IMG/VR virus record: IMGVR_UViG_3300028597_000007
Source: a virus
Length of the DNA: 64,000 bases
Direction: 5' to 3' (one strand)
In this document: positions 2 through 57,731 of the stretch, one piece after another
Numbering within the stretch: the first letter of the stretch is position 1
Layout: every line of letters begins with the position of its first letter
The notes under the pieces: generated by a model
The model's database searches: none
The model's input: only the letters and a program-made list of their open reading frames with translations
What the model was told of the DNA's origin: nothing
Made by a program: the position numbers and the translations under genes

Positions 2-1540
2 CTGCTGATGACCGTCAAGACCTCCGACGCCGAGCACGTCGGCATGTACTCGTTCCTGATCGACGGCGCAGACATCCGTCTGACTCCGAAGGTCGACAAG
101 GTCGATGGCCGTGCCTACGAGACCCCGATCGTCATCGGCGACATCTACAACAGCCAGGACTACATCACCCGCGCCACCGAGCTGGTCACTCAGACCCGCC
201 AGGGCCGTGCGATCAACCTGATCGACGCCGGTGCCGTGATCCTGCCTGCCGCCTACAACATCGAAACCAACGGCGTGTACAACCTGCTGTACAAGGCCAC
301 CCTGGCACTGTACAACACCCTGAACTACGTCGTTCAGCTCGATGACCAACCAGCCTACACCCTGGCCGGTCGTAACCAAGGCGGCGAGCAACTGGTCGGC
401 CGTCTGAACTTCGGCGGCGAGCGTTACGTCGACGAAGTCGGCATGCCGCAGCGTCACGACGTTATCGTCGAGATGGATTCGGTCCGCAACCAGCAGAACC
501 GCGACTTCGCCGGCGCCTCCAGCAACATCACCAAGGTTGCCGGTTACATGGAGCCGGTGTACGCGCAGCCTGACCCGCAGAACCCTGCCAACAACCAGCC
601 GTTCTTCAACCAGATGGTGATCACCCAGATCGCCTCCGGCTTCGACGCGCAGGAAGTTGAAATGTCCCTGCTGGGCCTGGTCACTGCGACCATGGTGCAG
701 ATCCGCAATGGCTGGGCTGACGCCTACCTGCCGCGCTTCGCCAACCAGGGCAAGGAGCTGAACTTCCGTGACGTCGGCGCCCTGGGCTTCTGCGTACCGG
801 AAAATGCTCGTATCGACACCAAGGCTGCCAGCTTCAAGGAAAACTTCGGCAACTTCATGCGCGATTTCTTCCGCCTGAACGCCGGTGTGATCTTCGCGAT
901 CGATATCCCAGAAGTCGGTCCTGACGCCTTCATCATGGACATCTTCCGCGCTGCTGCCTCGGGCAACGGCAACGCCATCAAGGCGCTGACCGATGCGTGC
1001 AACAACCTGACCGGTGGTATCTACGGCCAGAAAGCTGCAGCCATCGGTGGTGGCTTCCCGCTGTTCATCGATACCGGCAACCGCATCCACAACGGTTACT
1101 ACGCTTCCGAAACCGGCGAGCTGCGTGACATTCGTGATGTGGACCTGCTGGCCGTCGCCAACGTCCTGGGCAAGACCAACCCACAGGCGCTCATCGACTA
1201 CGCTGATTCGTTCGCTGCCGGCACCGCCCAAGCGCCGATCCGTATGTCCAAGCGTTTGGCCATCATCGACGACGTGCTGCAAGGTCGTCAGGTGATCACT
1301 GGCTACTCCGGCCGCTACATCATCGGCCCTGTGTTCCTGCGCGTCCTGTCGGAAGCCTGCCAAGCCTGCGGCCTGGTTGTCAACCCAGCGAACATGGTTC
1401 ACGGTCTGGGTTCGGGTCAGGTCCTGGGTGGCTACGACTACGGCGCATTCGCAGCTGGTGCTGCTGGTGCTGGCGTGTTCAACGGCGGTGGCAACACCGC
1501 GGCCAACACCGCTGCTTACGGCGGTCGTTCGGTCTGGTAA
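2..1540 (+). CDS. chmA: Chimallin / phage nuclear shell protein (5'-truncated by window edge)
   Basis: Frame is open from base 2. Contains NRIHNGYY..GELRDIRDVDLLAVAN, recalled as chimallin-like. Lies directly upstream of the catalytic nvRNAP beta' gene, as phiKZ gp54 does to gp55. Strong C-ending codon bias. Confidence 0.85.
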   Translation: MLMTVKTSDAEHVGMYSFLIDGADIRLTPKVDKVDGRAYETPIVIGDIYNSQDYITRATELVTQTRQGRAINLIDAGAVILPAAYNIETNGVYNLLYKATLALYNTLNYVVQLDDQPAYTLAGRNQGGEQLVGRLNFGGERYVDEVGMPQRHDVIVEMDSVRNQQNRDFAGASSNITKVAGYMEPVYAQPDPQNPANNQPFFNQMVITQIASGFDAQEVEMSLLGLVTATMVQIRNGWADAYLPRFANQGKELNFRDVGALGFCVPENARIDTKAASFKENFGNFMRDFFRLNAGVIFAIDIPEVGPDAFIMDIFRAAASGNGNAIKALTDACNNLTGGIYGQKAAAIGGGFPLFIDTGNRIHNGYYASETGELRDIRDVDLLAVANVLGKTNPQALIDYADSFAAGTAQAPIRMSKRLAIIDDVLQGRQVITGYSGRYIIGPVFLRVLSEACQACGLVVNPANMVHGLGSGQVLGGYDYGAFAAGAAGAGVFNGGGNTAANTAAYGGRSVW

Positions 1541-1544
1541 GGAA

Positions 1545-1725
1545 TTCGGCAGACGCCTCCTAGGGGGGCGCCTAGCTGGATAGCTGTTGGTTGACCTAAA
1601 ACAAACTGCGTCATTCGGGGGTGGCTCCTCATTGGGATAAATCGACCGACAGCGAACAGGATGCAACGAAAGCCGCTTAGCCGAAGGCTAGGCAAAGATC
1701 ATGGGTAGGCTGCCCAGTTGTATCC
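1545..1725 (+). ncRNA. Candidate structured RNA / structured 3' UTR after chimallin
   Basis: 12-bp stem 1583-1594/1642-1653 and 9-bp stem 1659-1667/1717-1725, with all mismatches being G-U pairs on the + strand. Internal hairpins at 1676-1692 and 1702-1716. Confidence 0.5.
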
Positions 1726-1731
1726 GGGTAT

Positions 1732-1761
1732 AGCCGCCCTCCGGGGCGGCTTTACTTATGC
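1732..1761 (+). terminator. GC hairpin followed by TATGC
   Basis: agccgccc-tccg-gggcggct, then TATGC at 1757-1761. Confidence 0.65.
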
Positions 1762-1791
1762 CCCAATTTACTTTTTATGGGAGATTAGGCG

Positions 1792-3300
1792 GTGGGACTA
1801 TATGCCTACGTTGTTGACCATAAGGAGATCCTCCAGACAATGGAAGAGCCTCCGATGGTGGTCAATGATCTCAACTTGGACTTCGGTACCAAAGAGGGCA
1901 AAGACCAGCTGGCCATGTACCTGTCGTTTCAATTCGACGGTGACGTGATTCCTGCGGTCCCAACCTGTCTGGGTGGCCACATTGGCGGTGAGGATAAGCT
2001 CGGCGTCAAGTGCAAGATCTGTGACACCCGTGTAGCCAACCTGGTTGATCGTGCAGTAGACCAAGGGGTATGGATTCGTCCGCCGGAAGGTGTGAAGGGA
2101 TTCATCAACCCTGAAGTCTGGAACGTGCTATCGCCACGGCTGACCCCGCTCAAGTCGTTCTCGATGATGAGCTGGGTGTGTGACCCCAACTACAGCGAAA
2201 CGCTGCCAGCGTACCAAGGCGTGCTCGAAGAGTACAAGAAGGTGCACAAGCGTGGTATGAACTACGTGCTGGAAAACTTCGATGAGGTAATCCGCTTCAT
2301 CATCACATCGAAGCTCTGTAGTAAGCTGTCGATGCAGGACAAGGCTGACATCCAGCTCTTCCTGCTGCAGAACCGCGACAAGGTAGTTCAGCAGTATCTT
2401 CCGCTGCCGAGTTCCATCTTCGTGGTTTCTGAAAAGACAGCGATGGGTACTTACGCCGACGAAAAGACGCCGGCGTTGTTGGATGCGATCTACATGATCA
2501 CCTCCACCTACGGTTCTGCCATTGCGCTGAACCAGCGTCAACGTGAATCGCACACAGCCCGGTTCATGGCTGCGATTGGTCCGTGTTACCAGAACATCTG
2601 TACCAAGTTCATCGGTAGCAAGTATGGTCTGATCCGTCGCCAGCTGATCGGTTCGCGTCTGCACTTCACTGGTCGTGGTGTAATCACCTCCATCAGCGAT
2701 GCGCATCATTACGAAGAGATCCACGTCCCATGGGCCTTCGCAGTGCAGATCCTCGAACCACACCTGCAATCCAAGCTGATGCGTCGCGGCATGTCTGCGA
2801 ACGAAGCGTTGGAGTTCCTCGAAGACCACACGCTGCAATGGCATCCACTGCTGCGCCAACTGTTCGACGAGCTGATTGCAGAAGCTCCACCGATCGACGA
2901 CTTCCCACCAGGGATCTTCGAAGATCTGGACGAAGACCCATCGCTGCTGCGTGGCATCCCATGCCTGTTCCAGCGTAACCCTTCGTTGACCCGCCTGTCG
3001 GCACAATGCTTGCGCATTACCCGAATCAAAGACGATGTCGAGGATTACACGATCTCGGTTTCGAACATGATCCTGGTGAGCTGGAACGCCGACTACGATG
3101 GCGACGAACTGAACATGCTGCTCTGCCTCGACAAGAAGATGCTGAGCTGGTTCAACCGTTTCCGTCCACACCTGGGCATGCGTTCGCTGAGAGAGCCACG
3201 CGCACTGTCCGACAACCAGAAAATCCACGCACCAGTAGCCGCCACCTGGGCGCACTACGTGCACCACTCTGAACGTAAGGCACCCCCAAGCGTTCATTAG
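1792..3300 (+). CDS. nvRNAP beta' N-terminal (catalytic) subunit, phiKZ gp55-like
   Basis: NADYDGDELN catalytic motif; GSRLHFTGRGVI and FQRNPSL match conserved beta' regions; N-terminal Cys cluster; GTG start with GGGAG RBS. Confidence 0.93.
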   Translation: MGLYAYVVDHKEILQTMEEPPMVVNDLNLDFGTKEGKDQLAMYLSFQFDGDVIPAVPTCLGGHIGGEDKLGVKCKICDTRVANLVDRAVDQGVWIRPPEGVKGFINPEVWNVLSPRLTPLKSFSMMSWVCDPNYSETLPAYQGVLEEYKKVHKRGMNYVLENFDEVIRFIITSKLCSKLSMQDKADIQLFLLQNRDKVVQQYLPLPSSIFVVSEKTAMGTYADEKTPALLDAIYMITSTYGSAIALNQRQRESHTARFMAAIGPCYQNICTKFIGSKYGLIRRQLIGSRLHFTGRGVITSISDAHHYEEIHVPWAFAVQILEPHLQSKLMRRGMSANEALEFLEDHTLQWHPLLRQLFDELIAEAPPIDDFPPGIFEDLDEDPSLLRGIPCLFQRNPSLTRLSAQCLRITRIKDDVEDYTISVSNMILVSWNADYDGDELNMLLCLDKKMLSWFNRFRPHLGMRSLREPRALSDNQKIHAPVAATWAHYVHHSERKAPPSVH

Positions 3301-3692: not shown

Positions 3693-4126
3693 GTCTCGAA
3701 AAATACAGTACCCTGCACAAGTACGTGCAGCGTATCGCGGAAGATGACCTGTGCGAAGAGCAGGACGATGCCGCGGCAGTGGCCTACGGCGTAGGTCAAG
3801 TCGTGTGCGCGGTTGGCAACACCATCCAGGCCGCCGCCCAGCGCCTGTACAATGCCAACAACCCGGAAGCCGTGCAGAACTTCCATGCCGGGGTTAGCAT
3901 GATCGCTGACCATGTCAAGCAGATGGCTGAAGAAGTCAGTGAGATGGTTGCCCCATTCGCCGAAGTTACCGACGGCGTCATGGGCGGCGCACTGGCCAAT
4001 GAAGCCGCCATGTTCAACGACGGTGTCCACAACACCCTGCTGAACGAAGCACAGCTGTTCCTCAGCGAGCACCTCGTAGCTGAAGCGAACAAAACCCACG
4101 GCGAAGCGCCTAAGGAAGCACAATGA
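3689..4126 (+). CDS. Hypothetical acidic protein
   Basis: GGAGG RBS; ATGA overlap with the upstream ORF. Confidence 0.8.
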   Translation: MSLEKYSTLHKYVQRIAEDDLCEEQDDAAAVAYGVGQVVCAVGNTIQAAAQRLYNANNPEAVQNFHAGVSMIADHVKQMAEEVSEMVAPFAEVTDGVMGGALANEAAMFNDGVHNTLLNEAQLFLSEHLVAEANKTHGEAPKEAQ

Positions 4127-4548
4127 GCAAGAACCTGAGCAAGTACGCAGCACTGCATCGCCTGACCAACGAGCTGAACATCGAAGACCAGTCGAGCGAA
4201 GGCGCCCCGATGAGCGACGATCGCCGTGTCGTGGCTACCGTCGGCGCTGCTGTAATGACCCTGGGCATGGGTATGACCGAACTGGCCACCTCCAACGAAC
4301 TGCCAGAAGAGCAGGTTGGTAAGCTGCTGGAGCTGGCCGGCAATTTGGCCGTGCATACGGCCGTCGGTTTCGACACTCTGGTCGATATCGACAAAACCAG
4401 CATCGGCGTCAGCATCGCTGGCGACATCGCCCAGGATGTTGAAGGTGTTGACATCTTCACCATGGGTCTGCGTGAAGTGTCCAGCTACGTGGCCGAGCGC
4501 CCGAAGCCAATCCCGCTGGCCGAGCAAGCCGTGCCAGCAAGCGAGTAA
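4123..4548 (+). CDS. Hypothetical acidic protein, possible paralog of the upstream ORF
   Basis: ATGA overlap; N-terminus LSKYAALHR resembles LEKYSTLHK of the previous ORF. Confidence 0.8.
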   Translation: MSKNLSKYAALHRLTNELNIEDQSSEGAPMSDDRRVVATVGAAVMTLGMGMTELATSNELPEEQVGKLLELAGNLAVHTAVGFDTLVDIDKTSIGVSIAGDIAQDVEGVDIFTMGLREVSSYVAERPKPIPLAEQAVPASE

Positions 4549-5199: not shown

Positions 5200-5252
5200 A
5201 ATGAGGGCGGCCTTCGGGTCGCCCTCATTTTTATGACGTATCTTTTTTTTTT
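5200..5252 (+). terminator. UUCG hairpin, TATGA and offset T10 tract
   Basis: 13-bp stem 5200-5212/5217-5229, TTCG loop, T10 at 5243-5252. Confidence 0.75.
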
Positions 5253-27191: not shown

Positions 27192-27479
27192 ATGATCGAC
27201 AACCGCATGATGCGTCACGCTATCATGGGACATGAGGAGGGGGATGATCCACGCCCCTCCCGCTTTGTGGTGGATAACCACACACGTCGCCTGATCCCTT
27301 ACCGTGACACGTACACGGAGAGCCAGGTCTGTACCAAGTTCGGTATCACCAAGGGCCAGCTGCGTAAAGCAGTGAAGTCTGGAGGCTTCCCGAAGCCTAC
27401 CAAGTACGGTCCAGGCAACAAGCCGTGGTGGGCTGACACCATCATCGACAAAGTGTCCCGTGTTGACGAAGACGAGTGA
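27192..27479 (+). CDS. AlpA/excisionase-like winged-helix DNA-binding protein
   Basis: GGGAG RBS before ATG 27192; ESQVCTKFGITKGQLRKAVKSGGFPKPTKYG..PWW fits the AlpA pattern. Confidence 0.72.
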   Translation: MIDNRMMRHAIMGHEEGDDPRPSRFVVDNHTRRLIPYRDTYTESQVCTKFGITKGQLRKAVKSGGFPKPTKYGPGNKPWWADTIIDKVSRVDEDE

Positions 27480-27481
27480 CG

Positions 27482-27522
27482 GCATAACCTCCCTCCCCGC
27501 AAGGGGAGGGAGGGCTTTATGC
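27482..27522. terminator. Bidirectional hairpin flanked by GCATA and TATGC
   Basis: 11-bp stem 27488-27498/27503-27513, GCAA loop; core shared with the 21384 hairpin. Confidence 0.8.
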
Positions 27523-29268
27523 TGCGTCTTTGTGTTCCTCGTCGTACAGTGCCAGCAGTTCGTTCGAAGCAGGCAGGCCCAGCAGTTGTTGTGCGATCAT
27601 GTTACCGTTGACATGACCACCAGTTAGATCGATACCGATCCATCTCCACTGATCCTCCTCCATGCCCTCCACAGATGACAGTTCCGTTTGCGTTGTGAAC
27701 TTGTCAATGTTGAGCATGTCCTGCAACTTAGGATACGTTGACACCACGTCGATGTCGGATACGTGCGTGAACAGTAATGGAACATGTCCTCGCATGTCAG
27801 ACACAATGTCGTCGTCTGGTTCCGGTCCCATGTAAGCAGGTAGTGTGACGATCCAGTTTCCAAGGCCAGGGCTGGCTTGGTCCACCTCCGTTAACATCTC
27901 GTCGGAAGTAGTACCCGCCATCAGCTTGTACTTCTGCAGGAAGAAGTGCAGGTCGTCAGCGATCATCCGTGGCTGGGAGTCGTAGTTCTTGTACTCGGAG
28001 CACTTCAGAAGAGCTGGCAGGCACATGGCGATGTCGTTGGTGGTTTCATCCAGCATTTCTACCGAGATGTCGTCCCACAAGTTGTAGATGCAGTATTCCA
28101 CAGGGAAATACTTCTGCATGAACTGGTGCCACTCTTTCTTCACGAACCCGTCAGCTTCCGTGAACTTAAGCTTGCCGCCCAGCTTGTGCTTACGCAGCAG
28201 ATAGTCCAGGTTGTACTCGGGGTCGTTCGCCGATGCCGTGCGGATACGCTTGTACAGAAGCATCGAGTCACAGATGACAAAGGAAGCCTGGTTGGTCACC
28301 GTGTGCCATTGGTCAATCGGGTTGATTGGAACCTTGGTGTCTTTACCGCCGTCCTTCTTGACCTTGTGTGCCGCGCCTTGGTTCCATTTGAAGTTACGGA
28401 ACTTCTTAGGAATACGGGGATCGCAGAATACGTCAGCCGGGTCATAGCCAGAGTCACGTAAGGCGCGTTCTGATTTGGGAATATCGAACGCCATGTTGAA
28501 GATGGTGACGTAGTCTGGTTGCCATTCATGGGCTGCCTCAAAGCTACGCTGCACCAATTGAGCCGGGAAGTCATGGATGTTGATTTCCATGGTCTGCGGG
28601 TCAATGCCACGTTTCTTTAAGATCGGCCCTAATAACTCTTCAGCCTTGTCGCGCACCAGTTGAATGAAGCGTTCTGGTTTCTTGTCTTCAGCAGACAGCG
28701 CAGACTCATCAATCCAGCTGCCCAGAATGTTCATGCTGACATTCTTTTTGTTGGTCATCGACGCGATAATGATCTCCTCTTCTTCGGAGTTCATATTCGT
28801 CTCGATATCGTAGACCGCCACGTTACTTGGGGTAGGTGTTCCACCCCAGCGATCGCGGTAACCACGCTTGACCAACACCGGTGTAGATACGTCCGCACCG
28901 TACAGGTAAGGGGACCTGGCAAGCTGTCTCAGACCGCCCCGAGCATTGGGGTTGCCGAGGGCGCGAGCGACCTTATTATGTAGTTCATGCTGACTGCAAG
29001 TGAACTTCCGAAGCTGCGAGATAGGTGCCCACGGGCGCTTGTCTTTATGTGTCCTGTACTTTTCCAGAGTGACGTAAAAGTCACGCTGGTAGTTGTGGAT
29101 CAGACGCAGGTTAGGAATAGGGGGACGCCCGTCCTTGCAGTGAATCAGTTCTTTAACGACGACCACGTCATTAGGCGAATAGTCGTTAGCCTTCGAATAA
29201 GTTGCGTGCACACATTCGAAGCGGTCGATCTCTTCCCGATCGGGGAGATTTGGATACATGAATGGCAT
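27517..29268 (-). CDS. Split B-family DNA polymerase, exonuclease and motif-A half (phiKZ gp82-like)
   Basis: Exo motifs YDIET, FNMAFD and YNLWD; PolB motif A DVVSTYP near the C-terminus; motifs B and C absent. Confidence 0.88.
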   Translation of the reverse strand: MPFMYPNLPDREEIDRFECVHATYSKANDYSPNDVVVVKELIHCKDGRPPIPNLRLIHNYQRDFYVTLEKYRTHKDKRPWAPISQLRKFTCSQHELHNKVARALGNPNARGGLRQLARSPYLYGADVSTPVLVKRGYRDRWGGTPTPSNVAVYDIETNMNSEEEEIIIASMTNKKNVSMNILGSWIDESALSAEDKKPERFIQLVRDKAEELLGPILKKRGIDPQTMEINIHDFPAQLVQRSFEAAHEWQPDYVTIFNMAFDIPKSERALRDSGYDPADVFCDPRIPKKFRNFKWNQGAAHKVKKDGGKDTKVPINPIDQWHTVTNQASFVICDSMLLYKRIRTASANDPEYNLDYLLRKHKLGGKLKFTEADGFVKKEWHQFMQKYFPVEYCIYNLWDDISVEMLDETTNDIAMCLPALLKCSEYKNYDSQPRMIADDLHFFLQKYKLMAGTTSDEMLTEVDQASPGLGNWIVTLPAYMGPEPDDDIVSDMRGHVPLLFTHVSDIDVVSTYPKLQDMLNIDKFTTQTELSSVEGMEEDQWRWIGIDLTGGHVNGNMIAQQLLGLPASNELLALYDEEHKDAA

Positions 29269-45835: not shown

Positions 45836-45871
45836 ATAAAAGCCGGGCCTTCGGGTCCGGCTTTTATGCCG
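45836..45871 (+). terminator. UUCG hairpin followed by TATGCCG
   Basis: aaaagccgggcc-ttcg-ggtccggctttt; TATGC 45865-45869. Confidence 0.75.
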
Positions 45872-54590: not shown

Positions 54591-55128
54591 GTACCGATCC
54601 TATATGTTCGGAGGTCAAGGCTATCAGCCGGGGGCGATTAACCTGATCGCTGTTCCCCGCTGGCTTGATTTGGCGTTCAAGGCAAAAGGTCTGACGGTCG
54701 AGCAAGCAATTAACATCGACCCTCAGTTGGGATTCACTGAATGTGTTTCGCGTAAGTTCGCGGAAGCTATAGTGTCATCCCAGGAAGTTGATTTTCACAA
54801 CGAGGTCACTTGGAGTCTGGGCGAATACCTGTTCCCGGACAAGAAGCAGCGACCGCAGCGTGACGAACTATATGCGAAGCTTGTGCGCGACTGGCATGGG
54901 GTTCCTCTGGTAAAGGGGCTGGAGTTGCACCTCCACCCTATTATCTTGGGGAGCAATCTCATTGGTCTGTATCACGTCGACCCAGTGCCTGGAGTCACTG
55001 ATACAGATTTATATGGGCGCATTCTGCGTTGTGCACACACTCTGGCATACAGCAAGGTCGGCGTTGGTGCGCTGGGCTGCGATCTGATCAAAGATGTGCT
55101 TAACGAAATTTATCTGGGTCAGCAATGA
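54589..55128 (+). CDS. Probable virion protein (phiKZ gp119 position)
   Basis: AGGAG at 54574-54578; ATG 54589 shares CATG with the helicase start. Confidence 0.65.
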   Translation: MYRSYMFGGQGYQPGAINLIAVPRWLDLAFKAKGLTVEQAINIDPQLGFTECVSRKFAEAIVSSQEVDFHNEVTWSLGEYLFPDKKQRPQRDELYAKLVRDWHGVPLVKGLELHLHPIILGSNLIGLYHVDPVPGVTDTDLYGRILRCAHTLAYSKVGVGALGCDLIKDVLNEIYLGQQ

Positions 55129-55249
55129 TCTGGAAGCAAGGTCTGGAGCTACAGGCACTGTAGTAACAGGTATTCTATAGCGAACTGGTATACGGGTCGC
55201 TCGTTAGTCGACTAACACAAACGCAGCATCCAGTCACTGGAGATTCTAC

Positions 55250-57656: not shown

Positions 57657-57688
57657 AGGGCAGGCCTTCGGGCCTGCCTTTATGCCGT
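57657..57688 (+). terminator. UUCG hairpin followed by TATGCCGT
   Basis: agggcaggcc-ttcg-ggcctgcctt; TATGC 57681-57685. Confidence 0.78.
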
Positions 57689-57704
57689 CGTGTTGGAATA
57701 ACCT

Positions 57705-57731
57705 TTTTTGAAACCTAAATTATCAAGTTGA
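57705..57731 (+). promoter_or_regulatory. Putative early promoter motif
   Basis: Identical 27-mer to 9515-9541; upstream of the operon containing nvRNAP beta-N. Confidence 0.65.

Follow-up and report, generated by a model that had tools for sequence, protein, structure and literature searches.

To judge from the sequence of the window (the whole 64,000-nucleotide stretch of viral DNA analyzed here) and from that of its relatives, positions 1541-1751 are a structured 3' untranslated tail of the transcript of chmA, the chimallin gene, and this tail ends at an intrinsic-type terminator. The tail is made up of three independently folding conserved modules (hairpin A, stem-loop B and three-way junction C) and is a mosaic, in that relatives swap, lose, gain or duplicate the modules independently, rather than as one unit. 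Conserved, structured RNAs in the tails of phage mRNAs are a known kind of element; modules B and C are RNA families new to Rfam and to the searchable literature. The message of chimallin, the founding protein of the phage nucleus, ranks among the earliest and most abundant ones. The best explanation of the tail, which we consider moderately probable, is that the tail or a 3' fragment of it would be a stable, protein-bound 3'UTR RNA with recognition surfaces. The coordinates of all features are given in Table 1.

The flanking genes are those named in the first-pass annotation, chimallin upstream and the beta' subunit of the nvRNAP downstream, and translations, tblastn, blastn and the Pfam domains of relatives agree on both. 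The chimallin of the window is 23-30% identical (tblastn) to phiKZ gp54, PhiPA3 gp53 and 201phi2-1 gp105, and likewise to that of many other Chimalliviridae; Pfam PF25677 is present in the chimallins of the closer relatives. The blastn matches of the downstream gene are annotated as RNA polymerase beta subunit in phages D6, Viktualia and 201phi2-1, and its counterparts in relatives contain an RNA_pol_Rpb1_2 domain. The gap between the two genes is 251 bases long, with about 190 bases from the chimallin gene to the terminator. No nucleotide-level relative was found by blastn among 50,697 deposited phage genomes, and the source phage is a member of an uncultured clade with genomes of about 231 kb.

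Table 1. Coordinates of the chimallin-tail features and associated elements (window positions, unless a contig is named).
Feature	Position	Strand	Details and basis
chmA (chimallin, nuclear shell protein), 3' part	2-1540	+	C-terminal 512 aa; stop codon TAA 1538-1540; translation
Module A, hairpin directly 3' of stop codon	1544-1581	+	lower stem AUUCGGC/GCUGGAU 1544-1550/1575-1581; upper stem 1554-1560/1564-1570; RNAfold
Module B, outer stem	1583-1594/1642-1653	+	12 bp, two U-G pairs
Module B, inner stem	1595-1599/1632-1636	+	
Module B, unpaired conserved stretch	1600-1612	+	AAACAAACUGCGUC
Module B, hairpin	1617-1620/1627-1630	+	conserved loop GUGGCU 1621-1626
Module C, three-way junction	1659-1725	+	alignment A5, model R1
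Module C, P1	1659-1667/1717-1725	+	
Module C, J1/2	1668-1674	+	GAAAGCC, 7 nt
Module C, P2	1675-1682/1686-1693	+	loop GAA
Module C, J2/3	1694-1701	+	AAAGAUCA, 8 nt
Module C, P3	1702-1707/1711-1716	+	near-invariant GGGUAGGCUGCCC; J3/1 absent
Candidate pseudoknot in module C	G1672 C1673 C1674 with G1708 G1709 C1710	+	J1/2 with P3 loop
Intrinsic-terminator-type hairpin	1732-1751	+	8 bp, 7 of them G-C, loop UCCG; terminator scan
Boundary motif after terminator hairpin	1752-1763	+	TTACTTATGCCC; alignment A3
nvRNAP beta'-type subunit gene	1792-3300	+	GTG start; Shine-Dalgarno GGGAGA 1779-1784; translation, blastn
Other terminator hairpins with TTTATG	5202-5235, 27488-27521, 29020-29050, 45842-45868, 57659-57685	+	
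phiKZ-type chmA-downstream RNA, phiKZ	L030 3001-3394		
phiKZ-type chmA-downstream RNA, PhiPA3	L034 2923-3437		
phiKZ-type chmA-downstream RNA, HPP-Temi	L041 2926-3318		

Every stem named earlier was found at its position (±1) on reading the sequence, and the RNAfold structure agreed with this reading, with hairpin A first, then a long stem around an internal hairpin, the three-way junction and the terminator hairpin. The minimum free energy of the + strand was -109.9 kcal/mol (z -3.56), a value equaled by none of 200 dinucleotide shuffles, and the reverse strand gave a z of -0.64. In a second dinucleotide-shuffle test, on positions 1541-1791, z was -4.3 for the + strand versus -0.5 for the - strand. 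A minus-strand RNA was rejected, its folding being no better than that of shuffled sequences (z -0.6 and -0.5 in the two tests). Wobble pairs (G-U or U-G) make up about 14% of the pair cells of module C in alignment A5; on the opposite strand they become A-C mismatches, and this frequency therefore fits an RNA from the + strand only. The strand-specific folding excess, the wobble cells and the covariation described below uphold the initial proposal of a structure selected at the RNA level and on the + strand.

Relatives were obtained as four IMG/VR contigs and one JGI metagenome contig (the only locus that a metagenome scan yielded) from chimallin-based searches, and as 15 Logan contigs via a 5.8-billion-protein index and contig look-ups. 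At least one module is carried by 16 related uncultured phage contigs. In the main clade, chimallin identity to the window is 59-92% overall (92% for L010; 74-77% for L001, L002, L009 and L011-L013; 59-65% for L003, L004 and L014-L021), and in a sister clade (L022, L023 and L051) it is about 36-37%. The next called gene is the polymerase gene in 18 of 20 relatives; L017 ends within the spacer, and three small genes intervene in L023.

The helices of the modules covary among these relatives. For module C, 12 distinct sequences were aligned with the structure written by hand (A5, 273 pair cells): 96.7% of the cells are standard pairs, and both sides have changed in 13 of the 23 pairs (51 cells), six of these pairs lying in P1 and six in P2. 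None of 500 shuffles reached the observed values, and pairing fell to 27-44% when the 3' partners were slid by 1-3 columns. P3 is nearly invariant apart from its closing pair, which is G-U, U-A or A-U. P3 and the junction bases are near-invariant, whereas the other helices of module C vary, which points to specific recognition rather than to a mere hairpin barrier. In the core of module B (1591-1640; alignment A7, 11 sequences, one of them from the clade at about 37%), 93.9% of the cells are paired, versus 39-62% in slid controls, and seven of nine pairs are doubly changed; the outer stem is present throughout, with a different sequence in each lineage. The hairpin at the module A position is kept in nine sequences (alignment A9), where it varies compensatorily, its lower stem being conserved and its upper stems differing, and the terminator stem also covaries, with three doubly changed pairs. 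At the nucleotide level, the modules (56-94% identity) are no better conserved than the coding DNA on either side (70-94%). A covariation analysis of the spacer between chmA and the polymerase gene had been proposed with the first-pass annotation, and in uncultured relatives it yielded the doubly changed pairs reported here for modules C and B; these compensatory changes and the conservation in relatives show structure far beyond chance.

The junction of module C may be pseudoknotted, through pairing of J1/2 with the P3 loop. This pairing (1672-1674 with 1708-1710) is allowed in all 12 sequences. L016 alone changes a near-invariant C (to U) and is also alone in changing a near-invariant G (to A), turning C-G into U-A, and three sequences with a C-to-U change in this pairing have U-G instead. 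The single compensatory event is suggestive, and the pseudoknot, if formed, would account for the lack of variation in the P3 loop and in the GC of J1/2. A manual search for a pseudoknot within module B gave pairing that was inconsistent across sequences, and this candidate was rejected.

When the spacers of the relatives are aligned side by side, modules A, A', B, C and D appear in differing combinations, that of the window being A-B-C. Module A' is a hairpin with covarying stems and the conserved loop GAAGGGCCAACCUA (L003, L011 and L014). Module D, which is absent from the window, is a hairpin with the hexaloop GCUUCA and flanks CAAUG/AUAGG (L004, L011, L014, L015, L018, L019 and L022); it is found in chimallin tails of both clades, and L051 has two tandem copies (4030-4130). 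L002 and L009 are without module B, a variant of B occupies the usual site of module C in L015 and L018, and L020, L021 and L023 have the terminator alone, in spacers of 72-76 nt; the modules are thus dispensable. In all carriers the modules come after the stop codon of chmA and before the terminator. L022, with the combination D-B, has about 100 further bases from the terminator to the polymerase gene. The modules hence stay with chmA and the terminator and belong to the chimallin transcript rather than to a polymerase leader. A dispersed or terminator-associated repeat family was rejected, because the modules present are single-copy in each of three ~230-kb genomes and in the window: covariance model R1 (module C) scores 69-91 bits at this locus only, R1 and R2 (module B) find one copy each in the 64-kb window and in the two IMG/VR genomes (~230 kb) that carry both modules, all at this locus, and genome G003 has module C only, without B. 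This exchange of modules among relatives clearly exemplifies the shuffling of RNA domains within untranslated regions of phages.

The first reading had recognized no riboswitch or ribozyme, and an Rfam search of positions 1300-2000 at E up to 10 likewise gave no such family: the only matches were the end of ryfA on the terminator hairpin (13 bits versus 80) and a snoRNA match of 11.5 bits. The whole window had no match in Rfam 15 at the gathering threshold, and the loci of eight relatives had no match to the tail modules, with only a group I intron-like match elsewhere. The window contains no tRNA or tmRNA. A conserved small ORF was rejected as well: relatives do not share the single ATG of the junction, at 1701, and their reading frames are broken by indels of one base. 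Neither blastn nor covariance models found homologues of the modules in cultured phages; with filters off, R1 and R2 reached at best 10-11 bits (E above 1) on 10 cultured chimallivirus loci. A strict pattern (P3 and the terminator base) run on 185,579 prokaryote genomes retrieved one chance hairpin, in an Acidobacteriota metagenome-assembled genome.

In cultured phages, the spacer between chmA and the polymerase gene is either short (84-117 nt in Noxifer, RAY, RP12, DT01, D6 and SA002) or long (394 nt in phiKZ, 394 in HPP-Temi and 515 in PhiPA3; also Phabio, LucasX, RTH11 and 201phi2-1). The spacers of phiKZ and PhiPA3 have an excess of folding over shuffled sequences (z -3.5 and -3.1, respectively). 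In the Pseudomonas phages phiKZ, PhiPA3 and HPP-Temi, the spacers have conserved blocks in common, together with a first hairpin that varies compensatorily and a shared terminator. Since the HPP-Temi spacer is filled by this conserved RNA, the two small ORFs annotated there (HSP1_CDS0382 and HSP1_CDS0381) are doubtful. The phiKZ-type RNA has the same position, strand and layout as the tail of the window: the stop codon is followed by a conserved multi-helix RNA of several hundred bases, a G+C-rich terminator that has a UUAU-type tail and a U run, and the polymerase gene. It is also mosaic, with an insertion of about 120 nt in PhiPA3. It differs in being longer (394-515 nt versus about 210 nt in the window) and shows no homology in sequence or structure (R1 and R2 at most 11 bits there, no blastn match). 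On these comparisons, the phiKZ-type RNA is analogous to the tail of the window and unrelated, not homologous. A literature search found no paper on how any RNA of a chimallin tail is structured or what it does.

A conserved boundary comes after the terminator, with TTACTTATGCC unchanged throughout alignment A3 (12 sequences) and slightly varied in L020-L022. The boundary motif includes TATG, the core of phiKZ late promoters, in which the G is +1 (PMC4666361). The full motif has no second copy in the window. The shorter TTTATG comes after most terminator hairpins; it directly follows five others of the + strand in the window, which makes it the usual transcript-boundary signal of this genome. 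By analogy with phiKZ, the TATG after the hairpin may have a role in termination, in initiation or in both, and TTTATG after hairpins may be a combined stop/start signal of phage polymerases. A hypothetical start at G1760 would give the polymerase gene a 32-nt leader, a length within the typical range in phiKZ (PMC8244752). No early-promoter motif of the chmA type lies inside the spacer, and TTACTTATG was rejected as a repeated promoter motif (4 found versus 4.7 expected in the window).

Stable RNAs derived from 3'UTRs are documented in Pseudomonas phages, e.g., PAK_P3 ncRNA1 and ncRNA2 and phiKZ 3'UTR_PHIKZ298 (PMC10914365). Like these, the tail of the window comes after a stop codon, has the mRNA's own terminator as its end, is structured and is conserved among relatives; the terminator-sharing layout, from the stop codon to the terminator, occurs in the same order in the relatives. 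By contrast, its processing and accumulation are hypothetical, no target pairing was found for it, and its multi-module fold is far more elaborate than the seed-plus-terminator type. If the tail is a stable, protein-bound 3'UTR RNA, as we favor, the modules would be produced in large amounts along with the most abundant early message, and their near-invariant loops and junctions would be recognition surfaces for a protein or for a tertiary fold. Either still on the message or as a cleaved 3' piece that shares the terminator, the tail would then accumulate as a stable ribonucleoprotein, and additional shielding of the chmA message from 3' decay would be a by-product. The partner may be the phage's own RNA-binding protein, ChmC, or a host factor. 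ChmC is the obvious candidate: the unannotated RNA in the chmA-polymerase spacer of PhiPA3 has ChmC eCLIP peaks (Enustun et al., 2024; PMC11077065). As the PhiPA3 RNA is not homologous, the ChmC link for the tail of the window is one of positional analogy only. Further points against the favored reading are that the binding motif of ChmC could not be unambiguously identified by the authors of that study, that three relatives do without any module, and that the nucleotide identity of the modules does not exceed that of the neighboring coding DNA. The presence of two unrelated RNA families at the same chimallin-tail site, together with the PhiPA3 eCLIP peaks, suggests uncharacterized RNA-based functions in nucleus-forming phages, and the defined modules and boundaries, testable pairs and candidate pseudoknot make probing, ChmC-binding, half-life and termination assays straightforward.

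It seems unlikely that the tail is a pure mRNA stabilizer, with stacked helices that would slow 3'-to-5' exonucleases or block endonuclease entry and raise the yield of ChmA with no specific partner. The location of the tail, 3'-terminal on a message that has to be plentiful, and its dense, stable pairing would suit this role, and retention of the terminator in module-free relatives would allow the modules to be optional boosters. However, a barrier needs no invariant loops or junctions, whereas P3, J1/2 and J2/3 are near-invariant across 59-92% chimallin identity; the terminator hairpin by itself already protects 3' ends, and the occurrence of distinct modules with conserved loops (GCUUCA, GAAGGGCCAACCUA and CUGGCU) favors specific recognition.

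Flavivirus xrRNAs are exonuclease-resistant 3'UTR RNAs that yield sfRNA. Compared with them for a possible mode of action only, the tail of the window is likewise a viral 3'UTR with compact three-way-junction modules, a candidate pseudoknot, and modules that can be duplicated or exchanged, such as the tandem module D of L051. Unlike them, the tail has no match to any Rfam family at E up to 10 beyond the low-scoring ones given above, and its pseudoknot is only a candidate. A broader proposal, which we regard as quite unlikely, is that the chimallin tail of nucleus-forming phages is a cassette site at which their most abundant early message takes up interchangeable, compact RNA devices (a pseudoknotted module C, and modules B and D), which would be released as nuclease-resistant, sfRNA-like RNAs and would bind or titrate a specific protein of the phage or the host, the phiKZ-type site being analogous and independently filled. 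The protein could be ChmC at the shell, the degradosome or an RNA-targeting defence. If true, this would be a previously unrecognized RNA layer of phage-nucleus biology.

The put RNA of HK022 mediates processive antitermination in cis, comes just after promoters and has two hairpins. The modules of the window likewise form a folded nascent RNA immediately upstream of a terminator that has to be passed for downstream expression; unlike put, they follow an ORF rather than a promoter and are dispensable in some relatives, and any effect on the polymerase is hypothetical. A function of this kind, in which module C, either as an aptamer that senses a ligand or a protein or as an RNA that, like put, modifies the transcribing polymerase, would tune passage of the terminator at 1732-1751 and thus read-through into the nvRNAP gene, is decidedly unlikely. 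Module C ends 6 nt upstream of the terminator stem, its compact junction with invariant bases and a possible pseudoknot is aptamer-like, and phiKZ gene 54 has been described within a multi-gene operon (PMC8244752). Several observations stand against such read-through control. Manual inspection of alignments A3 and A5 revealed no conserved alternative pairing between module and terminator, covariation is free in the terminator stem but absent from the invariant P3, and the same place holds module B in L015 and L018, and D and B in L022. Furthermore, L020 and L021 retain the terminator, the motif and the gene with no module, and the TATG 32 nt before the start codon suggests that the polymerase gene has a start site of its own. 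A terminating riboswitch with an antiterminator was rejected, as no conserved, mutually exclusive pairing was found by hand in A3 and A5.

In the classic layout of 3'UTR-derived sRNAs (see the review PMC9438474), a terminator closes a structured scaffold within which a conserved single strand lies. The conserved unpaired stretch of module B, AAACAAACUGCGUC, has this arrangement and could be imagined as the seed of a trans-acting, base-pairing sRNA directed at phage or host mRNAs, but this is very improbable: sites complementary to it number 6 versus 5.6 expected in the 64-kb window, none of them convincing, and pairing between the chmA leader and tail is at chance level in 11 relatives (z -1.3 to +1.3). 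The cores of hammerhead ribozymes have CUGANGA and GAAA joiners in a set order around three stems. The conservation of the region and its three-way junction with purine-rich joiners could also recall a self-cleaving ribozyme or a DNA-level element (a protein-binding site or an origin), but we consider these extremely improbable, given that no Rfam ribozyme matched at E up to 10, that the joiners of 7, 8 and 0 nt (GAAAGCC, AAAGAUCA and none) are unlike those of the hammerhead core in length and order, and that an element acting as duplex DNA is excluded by the G-U pairs and the difference between the strands.

Several other features of the window and its relatives were observed. Two further stretches of the window, gaps in a crude gene map, fold far better than shuffles, 27209-27516 and 54591-55174 (z -5.0 and -3.5 on the + strand). 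Both are probably coding: an ORF of 128 aa lies in the first and one of 220 aa in the second, the latter with 78-79% conservation from end to end among relatives. The chmA leader is conserved in relatives (at 2400-2500 in L010, L011 and L014, and in others), beginning with a promoter-like TGAAATAA-N11-AACCTAAACTAT, which is followed by a hairpin (GUGAA../..UUCAU) and then by near-invariant UGGCCAA. The loops of this hairpin (GGGUUU, GGAUUAA and GGAAUA) are complementary to AAACCC, UUAAUCC and UAUUCC just before the Shine-Dalgarno sequence, in an H-type pseudoknot with compensatory changes. The sequence GGAATAACCTTTTTTGAAACCTAAATTAT at 57690-57723 of the window is similar to this promoter-like motif of the relatives and is a candidate early promoter. 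The nvRNAP beta' gene is called at only about 442-469 aa in some relatives, and behind it comes an HNH_3 gene (L010 and L018) and/or a group I intron-like Rfam match (L022, 34.8 bits against a gathering score of 50); the loci concerned are L022 6274-6365, L010 6100-6828, L013 and L018 3761-4522. The polymerase gene of these relatives may hence be interrupted by an intron that carries a homing endonuclease; the gene of the window (502 aa) looks uninterrupted. In the closest relative, L010, a GIY-YIG/NUMOD3 homing-endonuclease gene (1812-2432) lies directly upstream of chmA.
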